From Oscillospiraceae bacterium (GTDB lineage: Bacteria; Bacillota; Clostridia; Oscillospirales; Acutalibacteraceae): 64,000 nt of DNA. Where the stretch lies: assembly GCA_015065975.1 (NCBI GenBank), contig SVPG01000001.1, positions 66,115 to 130,114 on the forward strand. The letters run 5' to 3'. Position 1 is the stretch's first letter; every line of letters starts with the position of its first letter. Shown here piece after piece: positions 4,908-49,097 of the stretch. A program made the translations under genes and the position numbers. The notes beneath the pieces were generated by a model. The model ran no database searches. It was given only the letters and a program-made list of their open reading frames with translations, and was not told where the DNA came from.

Positions 4908-5479
4908 GCGAAAGACCGCAATTGAGCAAAGAGCTTGACGCAAATACCTTTCTGAGCTTCTATTATCTCAAAGAGGAGCTGGTAGATTTCTGCCGTGAAA
5001 ACGGATTGCCCTCTTCGGGTGGAAAGGCTGAGCTCACCGACAGAATTGCCGTTTTCCTCGAAACAGGAAAAATCCTGAAGGCTTCCTCAAAAAGAAAAAC
5101 AGCGTCAACCGTCGGCATTATCACCGAGGACACGATAATAGAACCCGATATCGTCTGCTCCGAAAAGCATCGCGCATTCTTTACCGAAAAGATAGGCAAA
5201 GGCTTTTCTTTCAATGTCCTCTTTCAGAAATGGCTGAAAAGCAACGCGGGAAAGACCTATAAAGACGCTGTAGATGCATATTACCGAATCCTCGAAGAAA
5301 AGAAAAAGGGGAAAGCCACAATAGACAAGCAGTTTGAGTACAATACATACATTCGCGATTTCTTCGAGGCAAATCCCGGAAGGAGTCTTGAAGAAGCCAT
5401 CGTCTGCTGGAAATACAAAAAGAGCGTGCAGGGACATAACCGATATGAACGGTCGGACCTTGCCGCATTGGAGAGATAA
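4904..5479 (+). CDS. SAP domain-containing protein
   Basis: LPSSGGKAELTDRIAVFLETGK SAP motif; the ATG overlaps the upstream stop (ATGA), so translation is coupled. The six-frame ORF starting at 4649 is an in-frame upstream extension inside the ferredoxin gene. Confidence 0.6.
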   Translation: MSERPQLSKELDANTFLSFYYLKEELVDFCRENGLPSSGGKAELTDRIAVFLETGKILKASSKRKTASTVGIITEDTIIEPDIVCSEKHRAFFTEKIGKGFSFNVLFQKWLKSNAGKTYKDAVDAYYRILEEKKKGKATIDKQFEYNTYIRDFFEANPGRSLEEAIVCWKYKKSVQGHNRYERSDLAALER

Positions 5480-44145: not shown

Positions 44146-45393
44146 ATGTCATCATACAGTGAACTTGTCAAGAATTTTGAGAAGGTTCGCACCTATATGC
44201 GCGACTTTTATGTCTACGGACTGAAAAGCCGCAGCGAATACGACAAAAAGAGCGCACGCTCATACGACGACGAGCGCAGACGCATTGAGAGCTGGCTTGG
44301 CGAGCATATGGGATATACAAGAACGACCGACGGCAAGAATATGTTCATCTCCATCGACAGCCGTATCTGTGCTCACAATCCCCTGTACAGGTCTCTCAAA
44401 GCAAGAAGCTTTACCGACAAGGATATCACGCTGCATTTTATACTCTTTGACATTCTCTCCTCCCCCGACATCTCGCTCACTCTGAGCGAGATACTGTGCC
44501 GTATGGACGACTATCTCGGCTGTTTTGAAAGCCCCATGATGTTCGATGAATCGACTGTGCGAAAGAAGCTCGGCGAATACATCCGCGAGGGTATAATCGT
44601 CGGCACAAAGCAGGGACGCACCATGCTTTACAGCCGCAGCGAGACGGTCGACATCTCCTGCGACACCGACGCTGTCCACTTTTTCTCCGAAACTGCGCCC
44701 TGCGGAGTTGTCGGGTCGTTTCTGCTCGACAAGCTTCCCCTCCACAGCGACAATATCTTTTTCAAGCACCACTATATAACCTCCGCGCTTGACAGCGATG
44801 TCCTCGCCTCGCTCTTTGACGCAATGCATCGAAAGTGCGAGATTGCCGCGGTCAACACAGCGCGTCACACGTCGGGAACAAAAACTCTCAATCTCGTTCC
44901 CCTTCGCATTTTCATAAGTGTGCAGAGCGGACGCCAGCACCTTCTCGCCTATCAACCGCACAGCAAAAATTTCGGATCGTTCCGCCTCGATTATCTCTCC
45001 GATGTAAAAATCGGTCAGTGCTGTGCCGAGTTTGACCATCTGCGCTCACAGCTCGACCACTGTATGCAGTATATGTGGGGAGTCAACTGCCGCAATAACG
45101 AATCCCGCCTCGAACACGTGGAATTCACCATTCGGGTCGAGGACGGCGAGGAGCACATCGTCCACCGTCTCGAGCGCGAAAAACGCATCGGCACGGTTGA
45201 AAAGATCGACGATAAGCATTACAGATTTTTAGCCGATGTTTATGATACGAGCGAACTTATTCCCTGGATACGCACCTTTATATGCCGCATCACAAAGCTT
45301 GACTTCTCCGACCGCACAACCGAAAACCGTCTCAGGCGGGACATCGGCGAGATGTATAAAATGTACGGTATTGACGGAGGTGATACGGCTTGA
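44146..45393 (+). CDS. WYL domain-like regulatory protein (first of a tandem pair, PafB/PafC-like arrangement)
   Basis: Central motif RIFISVQSGRQHLLAYQPHSKNFGSFRLDYLSDVKI resembles the WYL core (WYLvaY...FRLDRI); C-terminus ELIPWIRTF...L resembles WCX; GGAGG RBS. Confidence 0.5.
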   Translation: MSSYSELVKNFEKVRTYMRDFYVYGLKSRSEYDKKSARSYDDERRRIESWLGEHMGYTRTTDGKNMFISIDSRICAHNPLYRSLKARSFTDKDITLHFILFDILSSPDISLTLSEILCRMDDYLGCFESPMMFDESTVRKKLGEYIREGIIVGTKQGRTMLYSRSETVDISCDTDAVHFFSETAPCGVVGSFLLDKLPLHSDNIFFKHHYITSALDSDVLASLFDAMHRKCEIAAVNTARHTSGTKTLNLVPLRIFISVQSGRQHLLAYQPHSKNFGSFRLDYLSDVKIGQCCAEFDHLRSQLDHCMQYMWGVNCRNNESRLEHVEFTIRVEDGEEHIVHRLEREKRIGTVEKIDDKHYRFLADVYDTSELIPWIRTFICRITKLDFSDRTTENRLRRDIGEMYKMYGIDGGDTA

Positions 45394-46301
45394 TCTTCAG
45401 CGAACTCTACTCGGTCTATTACAACGCCGTCGCAAAGATACTCTCCCTTGCCGTAAAGGGCGAGGCTGACGAAAAAGCTTTGCATCATATTATCTCGCAG
45501 TACGCCTTCTCGGAAAGTATGCTCACCATTCTCCCCTCGCTCAGAGAGGAAAAATGGCAGCTTCTCAAAAGCGATATGACCACTCCTCTCAGGCACGAGC
45601 CCACCATGCCGCTCACAACGCTCGAAAAACGCTGGCTCAAATCGCTGTCTCTCGATGAACGCATAAGGCTTTTTGACCTTCCTTTTGAGGGACTCGACGA
45701 CGTTGAACCTCTGTTCACCCCCGACGACTATGTCATATACGACAGGTACTGCGACGGTGACCCGTACGACAGCGACGAATATATAAAGATATTTCGCACG
45801 GTGCTTGAAGCCGTCCGTCAAAAACACCCTTTGAAAATATGCGCTTACAACCGCCGCGGAAATGTTATGGTTCTCAACGTCCTTCCGTCACGGCTTGAGT
45901 ATTCAGAAAAGGACGACAAGTTCCGACTCATTTTCACGGGATGCCGCCACGCAGACACGATCAATCTGTCGCGCATAATCTCCTGCCGCATACCCGATGA
46001 AGAAATCCGCCTTTCCTGCGAGCCGGTACCCCGTGAGAAAAGAACTCTCACACTTCGCGTACGGGACGAAAGAAACGCTCTCGAACGCGCAATGCTTCAT
46101 TTCGCGCACTTTGAAAAACAGGCCGAACGCCTCGACGAAAAGCATTATACAATGCGGATAAACTACGACCGTGCCGACGAGACCGAGATGGTCATACGGG
46201 TGCTCGGTTTCGGCCCTCTCGTCGAAGTAATCGAGCCGCAATCCTTCCGTGAGCTTATAATCGAACGACTCAAAAAGCAAAAAAGCTGTGGACTCAAATG
46301 A
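45390..46301 (+). CDS. WYL/WCX domain-like regulatory protein (second of tandem pair)
   Basis: KFRLIFTGCRHADTINLSRIISCRI is WYL-like; C-terminal MVIRVLGFGPLVEVIEPQSFRELIIERL matches WCX; 4-bp overlap (ATGA) with the upstream paralog. Confidence 0.5.
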   Translation: MIFSELYSVYYNAVAKILSLAVKGEADEKALHHIISQYAFSESMLTILPSLREEKWQLLKSDMTTPLRHEPTMPLTTLEKRWLKSLSLDERIRLFDLPFEGLDDVEPLFTPDDYVIYDRYCDGDPYDSDEYIKIFRTVLEAVRQKHPLKICAYNRRGNVMVLNVLPSRLEYSEKDDKFRLIFTGCRHADTINLSRIISCRIPDEEIRLSCEPVPREKRTLTLRVRDERNALERAMLHFAHFEKQAERLDEKHYTMRINYDRADETEMVIRVLGFGPLVEVIEPQSFRELIIERLKKQKSCGLK

Positions 46302-46312
46302 GTTCGCAGCTT
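46270..46312 (+). terminator. Terminator overlapping the end of the second WYL gene
   Basis: caaaaaagctgtgg...cgcagcttttttt. Confidence 0.6.
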
Positions 46313-46472
46313 TTTTTCCGTGTTTTTCCTGCCTGCCGATGATAGAATTCATATCGCAAGGAACACAAGGTGTTTGAATACAGCTTTCACCGCGGTGCGC
46401 AAGGCTGTGCCGACGCGTATGCCGAAACCTTCCCTGCACTCTTGGCAGCTCATTGACCGTCTGCGGTCATAG

Positions 46473-46524
46473 GAGCGGGGTTCAACTCCCCATTATTTTG
46501 CGGGTTCGATTCCCGCCGTATGCA
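46473..46524 (+). ncRNA. tRNA-like element: two T-arm-like hairpins without a complete tRNA (tRNA-mimic RNA or tRNA 3'-half relic)
   Basis: GGGGTTCAACTCCCC and GCGGGTTCGATTCCCGC(CGTATGC A). The second has a perfect T-stem, a TTCGATT loop and an acceptor-like 3' strand. No complementary 5' acceptor or anticodon arm found upstream. Confidence 0.4.
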
Positions 46525-46774
46525 AACTGCATATGCCCCGGTTGGTATAAGACAGAACACAACAAAAAAAACGCAGCTGCCCCGCAGAGCGCATCGGAGA
46601 CAGCTCTCCCCCGCGCCGAGCAATGCACTGTCTGCCCTGCCCGAAAACGGATACCGCGTATCTGCCGTCTGCACCAAGCTTTTTTCGTGCAGACCTGTGA
46701 ACGCTCAAGCTTTCGGCCGCCGATACTGCATGGGCTGCTGCAAACGAATTTTATCTCATGGAGGATTACATATT

Positions 46775-47878
46775 ATGAAAAAGATCATTGTCAGCGAAAA
46801 AGAAAGAGGATTCCTTTTCAGAAACGGAAAGTATATCAAGATGCTCGGCGCGGGAAAATACTATCTTTTCGGCGACAGCGAGATCGAAAAGGTCGAGCTT
46901 TCCCGTCCCGTCGTCTGCTCGAAATGCGAGCTTGAGACCCTTCTTGCCGACAGCGCCGTTGCAGACTGCGTATCGGTAATCGAAATCGGTGACGAGCAGA
47001 TCGCTCTTCACTATATAAACGGAAAGTTCGACAACATTCTCAGACGCGGCAAGCACGCTTTCTGGTCGGTCAACGATGTCCACGAGTACAGACTTGTCGA
47101 CATATCATCGCCCGAAGTCGACCCGTCCGTCCCCGAATACATATTCGACAGCATCTCTCCCCTTTATTATATAAAGGTCGAGGTTGCCGACTATCAGAAG
47201 GCCAGACTCTGCTTTAACAGAAAATTTGTCAGACTTCTTGATGCGGGAACATATTATTTCTGGCGAAACAGTGTTAAAATAGATGTGGACTTTGTCGATA
47301 CAAGGCTCACACAGATGAATATCACGGGTCAGGAAATGCTGACCGCCGATAAGGTATCGCTGCGCATAAACTTCGTGTGCAACTACCGCATAACCGACCC
47401 CGTCAGAATAAACAGCGAGATCGACGATTTTTCCGAGCAGATACACGTTGCGGCTCAGCTTGCACTGCGCGAGTATGTCGGCAGATACAAGCTCGACGAG
47501 ATCCTTGAAAACAAGGATCAGATGTCCGAGTTCGTCTATAAGAAGCTCAAGGAAAAAGAGGAAAGCCTCTTTGTTGAGATATGCGACGCCGGTGTCAAGG
47601 ATATTATCCTTCCCGGAGAAATACGCGAGATAATGAACACCGTCCTTGTCGCCGAAAAGCGCGCACAGGCGAATGTCATCACCCGCCGTGAGGAGGTCGC
47701 CTCCACAAGATCGCTGCTCAACACCGCAAAGCTCATGGATGAAAACAAGACCCTCTACAAGCTCAAGGAGCTTGAGTTCGTCGAGCGCATCTGTGAGAAC
47801 GTCGGAAGCATAAACCTCGGCACCGATTCGGATATCCTCTCTCAGCTCACGGGCATTCTGAGAGGACACGCCGTATAA
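46775..47878 (+). CDS. SPFH (band-7/stomatin-prohibitin-like) domain protein without a TM anchor
   Basis: ADKVSLRINFVCNYRITDPVR and a following coiled-coil, typical of SPFH; GGAGGA RBS 9 nt upstream of the ATG at 46775. The ORF track's 46520 start would read through the tRNA-like region. Confidence 0.7.
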   Translation: MKKIIVSEKERGFLFRNGKYIKMLGAGKYYLFGDSEIEKVELSRPVVCSKCELETLLADSAVADCVSVIEIGDEQIALHYINGKFDNILRRGKHAFWSVNDVHEYRLVDISSPEVDPSVPEYIFDSISPLYYIKVEVADYQKARLCFNRKFVRLLDAGTYYFWRNSVKIDVDFVDTRLTQMNITGQEMLTADKVSLRINFVCNYRITDPVRINSEIDDFSEQIHVAAQLALREYVGRYKLDEILENKDQMSEFVYKKLKEKEESLFVEICDAGVKDIILPGEIREIMNTVLVAEKRAQANVITRREEVASTRSLLNTAKLMDENKTLYKLKELEFVERICENVGSINLGTDSDILSQLTGILRGHAV

Positions 47879-47894: not shown

Positions 47895-49097
47895 ATGATT
47901 GAAATAATCGGAAAACATAACCGCGCCGTCTGCTACACGGACGACCTCGAAACAAATGCATACGAGCAGATTCTCGCCGTGTGCGACGAAAAGGCGTTCG
48001 CCGGCTCAAAAATACGCATCATGCCCGATGTTCACGCGGGAATGGGCTGCACCATCGGCACCACCATGACCATTCACGACAAGATCGTTCCGGGAATGGT
48101 GGGCGTCGATATCGGCTGCGGAATGGAGACCGTGCTTATCTCCGAGAAGGATATCGACTTCGAAAAGCTCGACAGCGTGATACGCCAAAAGATTCCCTGC
48201 GGCAGAGATGTGCGGCAAATTCCCCACCCTTTCAGCCGCGAGATAAACCTCGATGACCTGCGCTGTGCATATCATGTCAACCTCGTTCGCGCACGACAGA
48301 GCATTGGCACGCTCGGCGGCGGCAATCATTTCATCGAGCTCGACCGTGACAGCGACGGAAACATATATCTTGTCGTTCATTCGGGCAGCCGTCATCTGGG
48401 ACGCGAGGTGGCAGAGTACTACCAGAAACAGGGACGTCTCGCTATGTGGGGCGGCGCAAACCACCAGATAGAGCAGACGATAGCCGCTCTCAAAGCTGAG
48501 GGTCGTTTCTCCGAAATAAACTCTACCGTCAAGGCGCTCAAAAAGGAGCGGGAAATACCTATCGCCCGCGATCTTGCATACGTTGAAGGCAAGCTTTTCG
48601 ATGACTATATTCACGATATGAAGATCGTGCAGACCTTCGCCGCTCTCAACAGAAAGGCCATGACACGGGTAATACTCGACAATATGGGATTCACCGAAAT
48701 CGAGCGGTTCACCACCATTCACAACTACATCGACACCGACGCAATGATCCTGAGAAAGGGCTCTGTCTCCGCAAAGCTCGGAGAAAAGCTTCTCATTCCC
48801 ATAAACATGCGTGACGGCAGCCTCATCTGCATCGGCAAAGGCAGCGAGGACTGGAACTGCTCGGCTCCTCACGGTGCGGGCAGACTCATGTCCCGTTCGG
48901 CAGCGCTTCGGAATCTTTCGATGGACGAATACAAAGAGCAGATGTCGGGAATATATTCCACCTGCGTTCTGCCCGACACGCTCGACGAATCGCCGATGGC
49001 TTACAAGAGCATGGACGAGATCATAAAACAGATAACTCCCACTGCACAGATAATCAACCGCATTACACCGATATACAACTTCAAAGCAGCCGAATAA
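47895..49097 (+). CDS. rtcB: RtcB-family RNA 3'-phosphate ligase
   Basis: IMPDVHAGMGCTIGTT, GVDIGCGM, GGGNHFIELD and HSGSRHLG metal/GTP-binding motifs. Confidence 0.9.
   Translation: MIEIIGKHNRAVCYTDDLETNAYEQILAVCDEKAFAGSKIRIMPDVHAGMGCTIGTTMTIHDKIVPGMVGVDIGCGMETVLISEKDIDFEKLDSVIRQKIPCGRDVRQIPHPFSREINLDDLRCAYHVNLVRARQSIGTLGGGNHFIELDRDSDGNIYLVVHSGSRHLGREVAEYYQKQGRLAMWGGANHQIEQTIAALKAEGRFSEINSTVKALKKEREIPIARDLAYVEGKLFDDYIHDMKIVQTFAALNRKAMTRVILDNMGFTEIERFTTIHNYIDTDAMILRKGSVSAKLGEKLLIPINMRDGSLICIGKGSEDWNCSAPHGAGRLMSRSAALRNLSMDEYKEQMSGIYSTCVLPDTLDESPMAYKSMDEIIKQITPTAQIINRITPIYNFKAAE

Follow-up and report, generated by a model that had tools for sequence, protein, structure and literature searches.

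The window, as we call the whole 64-kb stretch of DNA that was analysed, contains a run of + strand genes that is interrupted by a long non-coding gap. Two regulator genes come first: WYLa (44146–45393; 415 aa), recognised by the Pfam WYL domain and the PADLOC WYL model (E = 4.5e-9), and WYLb (45390–46301; 303 aa), a WYL/WCX-domain gene identified by Pfam WCX and by the PADLOC WYL model at E = 1.5e-11. They are followed by a slipin (SPFH/Band-7) gene of 367 aa (46775–47878; Pfam Band_7, E = 6e-28) and a gene for a 400-aa RtcB RNA ligase (47895–49097; Pfam RtcB, E = 5e-60). The original prediction had pointed to a long intergenic region, and this is what we observed: about 470 nt separate the WYLb stop (46301) from the slipin ATG (46775), and they are non-coding, with an in-frame stop at a median of 45 nt upstream of the slipin ATG in 73 related loci. 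Since in-frame stops precede the ATG in relatives, a 452-aa open reading frame of the window (46520–47878) is a chance extension. The protein itself has more than 7000 homologues, which carry the NCBI name 'slipin family protein' and align from residue 1. Its AlphaFold model, together with fold matches, shows an SPFH domain preceded by three beta repeats at the N terminus and followed by C-terminal helices.

We compared this arrangement with 80 related loci by tblastn. A WYLa homologue is found at the equivalent place in 56 of the 80, and the intergenic element, an RNA as described below, is directly preceded by a WYLb homologue in 61; rtcB follows slipin in 61 as well. About 14 untruncated loci have no rtcB beside slipin, and there the RNA still accompanies slipin and the WYL pair. 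Some loci contain an extra open reading frame (ORF X) before slipin, and in these the RNA keeps its fixed distance from the first start codon. The Trk genes and the HD gene outside the cassette are not conserved in the 80 loci. The order WYLa-WYLb-RNA-slipin-(usually) RtcB is common to more than 70 Clostridia genomes or species, and the RNA lies directly upstream of slipin, and hence of a Band-7 gene, in the window and in ~70 loci. The intergenic region encodes one large conserved structured RNA that is part of a five-part cassette. The RNA is widespread in gut and rumen Clostridia; cultured carriers include Oscillibacter valericigenes Sjm18-20 and Robinsoniella peoriensis, and one of the related loci (L045) is from the O. 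valericigenes record AP012044.1.

The RNA extends over ~390 nt of the + strand (~46355–46741) and has three parts, each backed by compensatory changes. Its predicted start lies at a fixed distance 3' of a conserved box with an extended -10 element, and its predicted end is ~30 nt short of the Shine-Dalgarno sequence of slipin; across loci the end is ~25–45 nt before the first start codon. The 5' domain (46355–46438) is Y-shaped and was captured in a covariance model, R2. It is formed by P1 (46356–46363 with 46430–46437), the P2 core (GTG 46370–46372 with CAC 46388–46390) and P3 (46394–46400 with 46415–46423), which encloses a hairpin (46403–46405/46409–46411). R2 scores 50.2 bits on the window (E = 1.6e-12) and matches 74 of 81 sources, once each and on the + strand only; 744 kb of tRNA-rich viral DNA gave no R2 match. 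In the alignment fitted to the model, 95% of the cells are paired, and both partners have changed in 22 of 25 pairs.

Next to this domain lie the two T-arm-like hairpins that had been recognised from the sequence alone, both of which are present. T-arm 1 (GGGG/TTCAACT/CCCC, 46477–46491, + strand) is abutted by stem S (46448–46476), in which GCTC at 46448–46451 pairs with GAGC at 46473–46476 around an inner hairpin (GACCG 46455–46459/CGGTC 46464–46468). T-arm 1 is an optional peripheral element with a T-loop-type hairpin, found in ~20 loci; its stem varies (GGGG/CCCC, AGGG/CCCT, GAGG/CCTC, CGGG/CCCG) while the T at loop position 1 and the A at position 5 stay constant. A stem directly 5' of it is likewise seen in ~20 loci with differing sequences (ATCGA/TCGAT, ATCTG/CAGAT, ATCGC/GCGAT, GTCACT/AGTGAT and others). 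T-arm 2 (GCGGG/TTCGATT/CCCGC, 46500–46516, followed by CGTATGCA) is the universal core T-arm, with a 5-bp stem and a 7-nt UUCRANY loop, and is matched by the core model R1 in ~70 loci. It is 100% paired in 41 sequences, and three of its five pairs change on both sides (GC/UA, CG/UA, GC/AU). In ~60 of the 80 loci the core T-arm stands ~260–430 nt upstream of slipin, with compensatory changes. The motif GGTTCRANYCC occurs twice in the whole window, in T-arms 1 and 2, 24 nt apart on the + strand; the chance expectation is 0.46, and two matches were reached in 4 of 100 shuffles.

The strand CGTATGC(A) that follows T-arm 2 was said to have no matching acceptor partner. We found the partner immediately downstream: 46517–46524 pairs with 46528–46535 to form P6, an acceptor-like closed stem (CGTATGCA aac TGCATATG, 46517–46535) directly after the T stem. 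All seven P6 pairs change on both sides in relatives, and the window forms six of the seven aligned pairs, or 8 bp by eye. The gcatatgc palindrome, originally listed as a further structured element, is the 3' strand of this closed hairpin. An alternative pairing of the 'acceptor' strand with an upstream GYGTATG (seven pairs in the window, two of them G-U) was rejected, because that upstream strand covaries with GGTGCRY (P3) and P6 covaries independently. After P6 comes the P7 region (46536–46549), a D-loop-like hairpin whose family consensus is GCCA GUGGNU UGG, with the loop GG invariant or nearly so. Its stem covaries in relatives (CCA/UGG, CCG/CGG, CCU/AGG, CCAA/UUGG); in the window it is degenerate (CC CCGGTT GG) and the aligned columns are unpaired. 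P8, a GNRA/UUCG hairpin in relatives, is absent from the window, where an A-rich linker (46550–46572) takes its place. The window also lacks the anticodon-like arm that many relatives carry 5–7 nt upstream of the core T-arm; ~17 relatives have an anticodon-like 7-nt loop CUGUNAA in it (GUC, GUA, GUU, GUG), and minimal forms have no such arm. Both partners change in 16 of the 19 core-helix pairs, with a covariation of 0.36 vs 0.18 for shuffles in a plain MAFFT alignment. R1 gives one match per locus, on the + strand, and a single match in the window. A second R1 match in one related locus (L011, 5039–5127, minus strand) resembles the 3' end of a tmRNA or tRNA and is not a second copy.

The multi-helix 3' domain (46573–46741), defined by covariation in 64 sequences, is closed by P9, in which GCAGCTGCCC (46573–46582) pairs long-range with GGGCTGCTGC (46732–46741). 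P9 forms in 64 of 64 loci from unrelated sequences, and the local hairpin originally proposed for gcagctgccccgcagagcgc gives way to this pairing. Inside it are a hairpin (GCGC 46589–46592/46613–46616; GGAGA 46596–46600/TCTCC 46605–46609) and the helices H1 (46623–46632 with 46722–46731; 9/10 pairs in the window), H2 (46641–46648 with 46709–46716; 7/8), H3 (46656–46658 with 46702–46704; 3/3) and H4 (46667–46674 with 46687–46694; 6/6). An invariant GGATACCG (46649–46656) is present in 72 of 73 loci. In the plain MAFFT alignment of the 64 sequences, 86.5% of the cells pair and 34 of 35 pairs change on both sides; the covariation is 0.64 vs 0.24 for shuffles vs at most 0.17 for slid partners. For the core, 5' and 3' domains alike, the observed values were reached by 0 of 500 shuffles, and slid-partner controls were 4–10 times lower. 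E-INS-i alignment with RNAalifold over the full length recovered the structure in part only.

Upstream of the RNA, a terminator scan places a terminator-like hairpin of WYLb (17 pairs, then a T run) at 46279–46316 (+ strand). Its 3' half overlaps the conserved box TTCGCAGCTTTTTTTCCGTG (46303–46322, + strand), which is present in 69 of 74 loci, is kept even where the upstream half of the hairpin is not, and is unique in the window when up to three mismatches are allowed. In the 69 loci with the box, its end is 31 nt from the RNA start in 55 and 30–34 nt in the others. The box is a candidate WYL-regulator operator, occupying the -35 position. It is followed by an extended -10 element, TGaTAGAAT (46340–46348, + strand), of the form TGnTAnnnT, which 52 of 74 loci share at equal spacing to the RNA; a scan of the window for consensus -35/-10 pairs called no promoter. 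Transcription is predicted to start near 46355. At the other end, the Shine-Dalgarno sequence GGAGG (46760–46764) and the slipin ATG (46775–46777) lie on the + strand in an A/U-rich linker (46760–46777) with no apparent structure, and ribosome-binding sites are in A/U-rich linkers in all loci inspected by eye. No helix hiding the Shine-Dalgarno site was seen by eye in the leader sequences inspected. From 46520 to 46775 the terminator scan reported nothing on the + strand, a spurious call on T-arm 1 aside.

The predicted core copies the elbow of a tRNA, with its T-arm, acceptor-like closed stem and D-loop-like hairpin, in an order that is a circular permutation of tRNA; these elements make up about a fifth of the ~390-nt RNA. 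The original view of a tRNA mimic linked to RtcB, as opposed to an ordinary tRNA, is upheld in general terms: ARAGORN found 0 tRNA genes in the window, and rtcB usually belongs to the cassette. At the element itself ARAGORN called odd tRNAs in 2 of 60 related loci. Searching the whole window with Rfam 15 at the gathering threshold gave no family match, and only local T-arm matches of 15–17 nt in the tRNA/tmRNA clan were seen (tmRNA, 17 and 12.5 bits). Given permuted constructs, ARAGORN called a tRNA in 25 of 41 cases; in native order it called 0 of 41, and with the heads shuffled 24% at the relaxed threshold. The D-arm it drew was not exactly P7, and the anticodon fell in the P4 loop. Because of the high shuffled background (24%), this test is only suggestive.

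A related element, combining a T-arm with a closed stem, precedes proteobacterial slipin genes under RtcR/sigma-54-type control. This simpler relative is found in 30% of complete E. coli genomes; it lies upstream of slipin genes in E. coli and Citrobacter, with rtcR adjacent in Citrobacter, and the one RefSeq E. coli record inspected has no RNA feature annotated at that site. ARAGORN was essentially negative on the proteobacterial loci. R2 gave no match on the proteobacterial leaders, and the 5' domain is therefore Clostridia-specific or too diverged. A search for the RNA first, by the DNA pattern GGTTCGAATCCNNCN{15,40}CCAGTGG, was too unspecific and returned mostly ordinary tRNA neighbourhoods; its true members are L207 and L259 only. 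Both carry the RNA: L259 has the full cassette, and the L207 contig holds only the start of slipin. A more specific 5'-domain pattern gave 12 matches on viral contigs, none of them real, and blastn of the leader against plasmids and phages found no match. We found no curated, annotated or experimentally tested record of the RNA in Rfam 15 or the literature, and neither Weinberg 2017 nor the other RNA discovery papers surveyed mention a motif upstream of SPFH or RtcB genes.

What might such an RNA do? Burroughs and Aravind reportedly predicted, in Nucleic Acids Res in 2016, a band-7-associated tRNA-like RNA (b7a-tRNA). We give about an even chance to a joint reading in which the RNA is a form of b7a-tRNA, is activated by WYL regulators, acts as a partner of slipin and, through slipin, of RtcB, and is unlikely to be a classical riboswitch. 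The WYL regulator pair would activate the promoter, and the transcribed RNA, still on the mRNA or after processing, would partner a slipin oligomer and through it RtcB. Its role would resemble that of the tRNA-like Y RNA for Ro60 in rsr-rtcB operons, and a tRNA-shaped scaffold or decoy would recruit to the repair module factors that recognise tRNA, or damaged substrates resembling it. By analogy with Y RNA and Ro60, a function as RNA partner of slipin and RtcB is probable. This reading is supported by the persistence of the RNA with slipin and the WYL pair in the ~14 loci without adjacent rtcB, and by the related element before proteobacterial slipin genes. Against it, the window has a degenerate D-like hairpin and lacks both P8 and the anticodon-like arm. 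A classical riboswitch is unlikely because there is no terminator and no Shine-Dalgarno-sequestering helix.

Alternatively, the RNA could be a cis-regulatory leader that controls slipin-rtcB expression from within the mRNA, which we consider possible, if on the unlikely side. It could bind slipin or RtcB in an autoregulatory manner, or a tRNA or small ligand; it could also be a sentinel shaped like a tRNA, which anticodon or tRNA nucleases would cut and RtcB would reseal, with a change in mRNA stability or translation. The RNA is always in the 5' leader, on the + strand and at a constant spacing from the first start codon (~25–45 nt), even in loci with the extra open reading frame, a placement expected of a cis-acting element; no terminator separates it from the coding region. 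The ~17 relatives with the CUGUNAA loop would also suit this reading. GUN anticodons are those of queuosine tRNAs, which are cut by colicin-E5-type nucleases. A precedent comes from Salmonella, where damaged tRNA switches on the rtc operon (PMC7790460). However, nothing resembling an expression platform can be seen: the linker around the ribosome-binding site is A/U-rich and without apparent structure, and an intrinsic terminator is lacking. In size and elaboration the RNA far exceeds comparable known leaders, the anticodon-like arm is an optional element that neither the window nor the minimal forms possess, and transcription would already be controlled by two WYL regulators and the candidate operator-like box.

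A further and rather doubtful reading, drawn by analogy, is that the RNA and slipin form a bacterial vault-like or Ro-like RNP. Here an oligomeric SPFH ring or cage, with a subunit resembling a miniature major vault protein, would carry the ornate RNA; the permuted-tRNA module of the RNA would bait nucleases that target tRNA, or stand sentinel for them, and give RtcB a place to dock, and cutting and resealing of the RNA would report RNA damage, perhaps to the WYL regulators. Damaged-tRNA fragments have been reported to act on RtcR, which offers a parallel for such WYL signalling.

The remaining identities fare far worse. A YrlA-class Y RNA binding Ro60 (Rsr), as originally proposed, would fit a tRNA-like T-arm module that adjoins rtcB, as in rsr-yrlBA-rtcBA operons, but we consider it very improbable. 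Up to E = 10, Rfam gave only local T-arm matches to tmRNA and chance matches in the window region and L001, and none to the tRNA, Y RNA or YrlA models; Pfam found no TROVE/Ro60 domain in eight flanking genes, the conserved cassette has none, and the partner is slipin. No terminal stem joining the 5' and 3' ends was seen, and the ~390-nt architecture is a different one. A decayed tRNA gene, or a duplicated tRNA 3' half serving as the att site of an integrating element, had been suggested by the perfect T-arm and the 7-nt acceptor-like strand behind it, yet conservation and covariation in the sequences compared refute this to near certainty: the window holds no second copy, with a single R1 match and a single box, and has no tRNA, the adjacent genes include no integrase by Pfam, phage and plasmid collections gave no match, and the element keeps its cassette position in more than 70 species with pairing-preserving substitutions, inside a covarying structure of ~390 nt. 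A genuine but unusual tRNA gene, permuted or split and then processed, that the finders missed is just as remote: ARAGORN often accepts the artificially permuted constructs, with an anticodon in the P4 loop, and makes its odd calls at 2 of 60 loci, but the shuffled background is high, structured sequence of hundreds of nucleotides flanks the D-to-anticodon junction on either side, the optional anticodon arm has an 'anticodon' that varies between close relatives, and there is neither a CCA end nor a free acceptor end.

The RNA bears on the substrates of bacterial RtcB ligases and on their targeting. To our knowledge, Ro60 with Y RNA is the only RNA cofactor of bacterial RtcB that has been studied. 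The RNA described here is a second tRNA mimic in RtcB operons, unrelated to Y RNA and with a secondary structure that is strongly supported comparatively. The E. coli relative places the system where genetics is easy. A curated model would permit annotation and define a testable set of components: RNA, slipin, RtcB, and WYL or RtcR regulators. It would also supply a new case from nature of a tRNA-like fold that is circularly permuted within a large RNA.

Among known systems, T-box and other large leaders share with this RNA a long structured 5' leader, T-loop motifs and a relation to tRNA. Unlike them, it has no T-box family match, specifier, antiterminator or terminator, and as far as the sequence tells it imitates a tRNA rather than binding one. 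The vault particle combines the major vault protein with vault RNA and the TROVE-domain protein TEP1; slipin has only three repeats, the structural resemblance is of moderate score, and a cage and RNA binding are hypothetical. The likeness to tmRNA lies in the T-arm, whose sequence comes very close to the tmRNA consensus and accounts for the sole Rfam matches; T-arm 2 matches the tmRNA T-arm locally. In E. coli, RtcB often acts on tmRNA (PMC9650030). In contrast to tmRNA, the present RNA has no mRNA-like domain, pseudoknot series, end-formed acceptor or CCA end.

Bacterial Y RNAs occur with Ro60 (Rsr) in rsr-yrlBA-rtcBA operons (Chen et al. 2014, PMC4201824). In both cases a tRNA mimic with a T-arm and D-loop elbow resides in an RtcB operon together with a ring-forming or oligomeric scaffold protein, the pairing of our RNA with slipin being a proposal by analogy. 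YrlA is co-transcribed with the RtcB operon, and the same is predicted for the RNA. They differ in that the RNA has no sequence or covariance-model similarity to YrlA, goes with slipin and not with Ro60/TROVE, lies at the mRNA 5' end and not between genes, is much larger and has no terminal Ro-binding stem.

The closest counterpart is b7a-tRNA. In the 2018 preprint by Wang et al. (10.1101/312249), it is described as predicted and not yet validated, next to Band-7 and RtcB genes, as 'strongly resembl[ing] an authentic tRNA' and as proposed to be functionally redundant with YrlA; we found no report of its experimental validation in the literature. It is described as tRNA-like, whereas ARAGORN and the Rfam tRNA model reject the window element in its native order, and here permuted elements sit within a three-domain mRNA-leader RNA. 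An RNA of this kind was, as quoted there, already predicted in 2016; what is described here is probably a Clostridia family of it, and has no Rfam 15 match. In both cases a non-coding tRNA-like element lies beside Band-7/SPFH and RtcB genes and, in the quoted account, is the proposed cognate RNA of a repair scaffold protein. On the strength of this secondary quotation, the RNA is most likely the Clostridia form of the b7a-tRNA of Burroughs and Aravind.

Upstream of the slipin-rtcB genes lies a conserved, highly structured RNA of ~390 nt (46355-46741, + strand), which is co-oriented and contiguous with these genes and is preceded by a conserved regulator-type promoter. It is flanked upstream by two genes for WYL-domain proteins, WYLa (44146-45393) and WYLb (45390-46301, with a strong terminator-like hairpin at its end), and downstream by a slipin (SPFH/Band-7) gene (46775-47878), rtcB (47895-49097) and an HD-domain gene. 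A 452-aa ORF in frame with slipin (46520-47878, + strand) begins at an ATG inside the RNA; we rejected it as the true slipin start and regard it as a chance in-frame extension, since the 365-367-aa homologues align from residue 1. Across 73 related loci, an in-frame stop is found at a median of 45 nt upstream of the slipin ATG. The sole Rfam 15 family found elsewhere in the window was a TPP riboswitch (RF00059; 33260-33365, + strand; 70.3 bits), which is unrelated to the RNA.

Slipin has thousands of close homologues, and 80 related loci were taken from GTDB genomes, including Oscillospiraceae, Acutalibacteraceae, Ruminococcus, Lachnospiraceae (Robinsoniella), Christensenellaceae, Oscillibacter valericigenes and others. 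By tblastn, these 80 loci keep the order WYLa, WYLb, RNA, slipin, RtcB, with WYL genes in 56-61 and rtcB in 61 of them; contig ends make up many of the absences. The outer neighbours in the window (Trk genes, HD gene) were conserved in none of the related loci by the same search. We observed ~14 loci with the WYL pair, the RNA and slipin and no rtcB within 4 kb downstream (L004, L005, L009, L020, L047, L058, L060, L062, L065, L067, L068, L070, L073 and L078), and the RNA has a closer link with slipin and the WYL pair than with rtcB. In L005 and L065, the genes that follow are encoded on the other strand. An additional ORF of ~212 aa, which matched no NCBIfam or PADLOC family, separates the RNA from slipin in seven loci (L016 3330-3983; L079 3351-3989; also L003, L024, L027, L061 and L075); here, the RNA remains at the 5' end of the operon. 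Two close slipin homologues, P0002 (638 aa) and P0003 (637 aa), are almost twice the 365-367-aa norm and may be fusions or duplications.

The two tRNA T-arm-like hairpins of the original prediction have the sequence it gave, with T-arm 1 at 46477-46491 (GGGG-TTCAACT-CCCC) and T-arm 2 at 46500-46516 (GCGGG-TTCGATT-CCCGC, then CGTATGCA). The motif GGTTCRANYCC occurs twice in the 64-kb window compared to 0.46 times by chance, and the two copies are these hairpins, 24 nt apart on the + strand. The view that this is not an ordinary tRNA gene was borne out: ARAGORN found no tRNA or tmRNA gene in the window, and Rfam 15 gave no tRNA match in the region up to E = 10. Its suggestion of a Y RNA of the YrlA class found no such backing, as the Y RNA and YrlA models were equally without a match in the region up to E = 10. 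T-box models had no match there either; both hairpins gave local 15-17-nt matches to the tmRNA T-arm. The finding is more substantial than first thought, namely a large structured RNA with strong covariation that is tied to RNA repair. In ~60 of the 80 loci, a T-arm hairpin precedes the slipin start by ~260-430 nt, and its stems show compensatory changes (GCGGG/CCCGC, GTGGG/CCCAC, GCAGG/CCTGC, GCCGG/CCGGC, ATAGG/CCTAT).

Directly after T-arm 2 comes P6, a loop-capped stem of 7 bp (46517-46535), and the tRNA-like core further comprises P7 (consensus GCCA-GUGGNU-UGG, the loop GG being invariant or nearly so) and, after it, the GNRA/UUCG hairpin P8. In the window, P7 is degenerate and an A-rich linker takes the place of P8. 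A covariance model of the core, R1, has a single match in the window (46494-46573; 46.7 bits, E 3.7e-14) and also matches ~70 loci. When 41 sequences are aligned with plain MAFFT, 89.5% of cells are paired and both sides change in 16 of 19 pairs, with a covariation score of 0.36 compared to 0.18 for shuffles and <=0.09 for slid partners. One locus (L011) has a second, weak R1 match downstream of rtcB (5039-5127, - strand), which reads GTGGGTTCGAATCCCAC-CATCTCCGCCA and then a terminator, and resembles the 3' end of a tmRNA or tRNA gene uncalled by ARAGORN.

The 5' domain (46355-46438) consists of P1, in which the extreme 5' end GCAAGG pairs with a CCUUGC-like sequence, and, inside it, hairpin P2 and helix P3 (GGUGCRY ... 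RYGUAUGCC, enclosing a small hairpin). Covariation in P3 (CAC/GUG, CGC/GCG, CAU/AUG, CGU/ACG) is plain in the raw sequence already. R2, a model of this domain made from 13 sequences, matches 74 of 81 sources, once per source and on the + strand only, scores the window at 50.2 bits (E 1.6e-12) and has no match in 744 kb of tRNA-rich viral DNA; in its model-fitted alignment, 95% of cells are paired and both sides change in 22 of 25 pairs. The middle that follows is variable and just 5-10 nt long in minimal forms. Since ~20 loci including the window have a stem abutting T-arm 1 (here GCTC 46448-46451 with GAGC 46473-46476), with stem and T-arm 1 both covarying, and others are without them, the first predicted hairpin is real but only an optional peripheral element of the RNA. 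In many relatives (L001, L004, L013, L017, L038 and others), an anticodon-like arm comes shortly before the core T-arm; this arm is optional and absent from the window. Its loop of 7 nt is mostly CUGUNAA, with GUC in 7 loci, GUA in 4, GUU in 3 and GUG in 1; GUN anticodons are carried by the queuosine tRNAs for Asp, Tyr, Asn and His.

The 3' domain (46573-46741) is closed by the long-range helix P9 (46573-46582 with 46732-46741), which is found in 64/64 loci with quite different sequences and encloses a junction of one hairpin and helices H1-H4, which are grouped around the invariant motifs GGAUACCG, GCCUUGYC/GCCGC and GCCAAAAG...CUUUCCGC. A plain MAFFT alignment of 64 sequences has 86.5% of cells paired, both-side changes in 34 of 35 pairs and a covariation score of 0.64, compared to 0.24 for shuffles and <=0.17 for slid partners. 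The RNA is a single unit, because in 72 of 73 loci, among them the ones with the additional ORF, the T-arm is followed by GGATACCG. Conservation spans the whole leader, not the hairpins alone. Its final ~30 nt are A/U-rich with a strong GGAGG, and no terminator or Shine-Dalgarno-sequestering helix was seen at the leader end.

Ahead of the RNA, 69 of 74 loci have a box TTCGCAGCTTTTTTTCCGTG (46303-46322), which occurs only once in the window; in 55 of them, its end is 31 nt away from the RNA start. It is kept even in loci that do not conserve the upstream half of the terminator hairpin and so cannot form this hairpin; for this reason, we read the box as a candidate operator of the WYL pair, probably standing in for a -35 element. 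An extended -10 element (TGaTAGAAT, 46340-46348) lies downstream.

The elements are ordered as anticodon-like arm, 5-7-nt linker, T-arm, closed acceptor-like stem and D-like hairpin. This is the order of a circularly permuted tRNA that is opened between its D and anticodon arms and sealed at its acceptor end, and the remainder of the RNA exits through the opening. ARAGORN called tRNAs in 25 of 41 permuted constructs at a relaxed threshold (6 of 41 at default), compared to 0 of 41 in native order, 4 of 41 with reversed heads and 49 of 205 with shuffled heads (5 of 205 at default). Given this high background, and an ARAGORN D-arm that does not coincide exactly with P7, the test favours the permuted-tRNA reading weakly. 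Firmer are three features, namely a T-loop of canonical type, a stem that stacks immediately behind it and the invariant GG. In tRNA, a G18/G19-type contact is made with the T-loop, and by analogy the P7 GG could make one here.

Proteobacteria have full-length slipin homologues (~33% identity); the gene is divergent from rtcR with a nucleotidyltransferase gene next in Citrobacter freundii (L334), and lies between yjbD and lysC in E. coli. These slipin-nucleotidyltransferase operons have a leader of ~280 nt (L333 4712-4997 in E. coli STEC639; L334; L335), where R1 found UGGGUUCGAUUCCCA, a closed stem and CUGGUU ~125 nt upstream of slipin genes (23.3 bits, E 3.7e-7; 14.6 bits, E 5e-4), downstream of a sigma-54-like TGGCAC-N5-TCGCA. 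R2 did not find the Clostridial 5' domain in these leaders. The E. coli leader occurs in 1632 of 5426 complete genomes and bears no RNA annotation in the one region inspected; in STEC309, the next gene belongs to the zeta-toxin family and has the opposite orientation. IMG/VR viral contigs, phage records and plasmids yielded no family members.

Rfam 15 has no family for the RNA, and no motif of this kind is mentioned in the RNA motif discovery papers checked. A band-7-associated tRNA-like RNA (b7a-tRNA) of Burroughs and Aravind 2016 is cited in a preprint by Wang et al. (10.1101/312249); this preprint was the only full-text hit for the term, and broader searching added no paper. On the strength of this citation and the lack of another paper or Rfam 15 family, we regard the window element as the Clostridial form of the predicted b7a-tRNA class, so that, going by the preprint's citation, the concept of such an RNA was predicted in 2016 already. 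However, the statement in the preprint that b7a-tRNA 'strongly resembles an authentic tRNA' is unlike the tool results obtained here.

We favour the RNA as an RNA partner of slipin/RtcB, a reading that we hold at about even odds. Its main rival is a cis-acting leader, which might serve autoregulation by slipin or RtcB or be a sentinel that tRNA nucleases would cut and RtcB would reseal. This rival would suit the strict confinement of the RNA to the 5' leader and the GUN anticodon-like loops that are frequent in relatives; we consider it less likely, as no expression platform can be seen and the anticodon arm, an optional element, is missing in the window. YrlA, a true tRNA and a tRNA relic or att site are effectively excluded. 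As a partner of slipin/RtcB, the RNA would be made whenever the WYL pair turns on the operon and might serve these proteins as a tRNA-shaped scaffold or decoy, in a proposed likeness to YrlA with Ro60.
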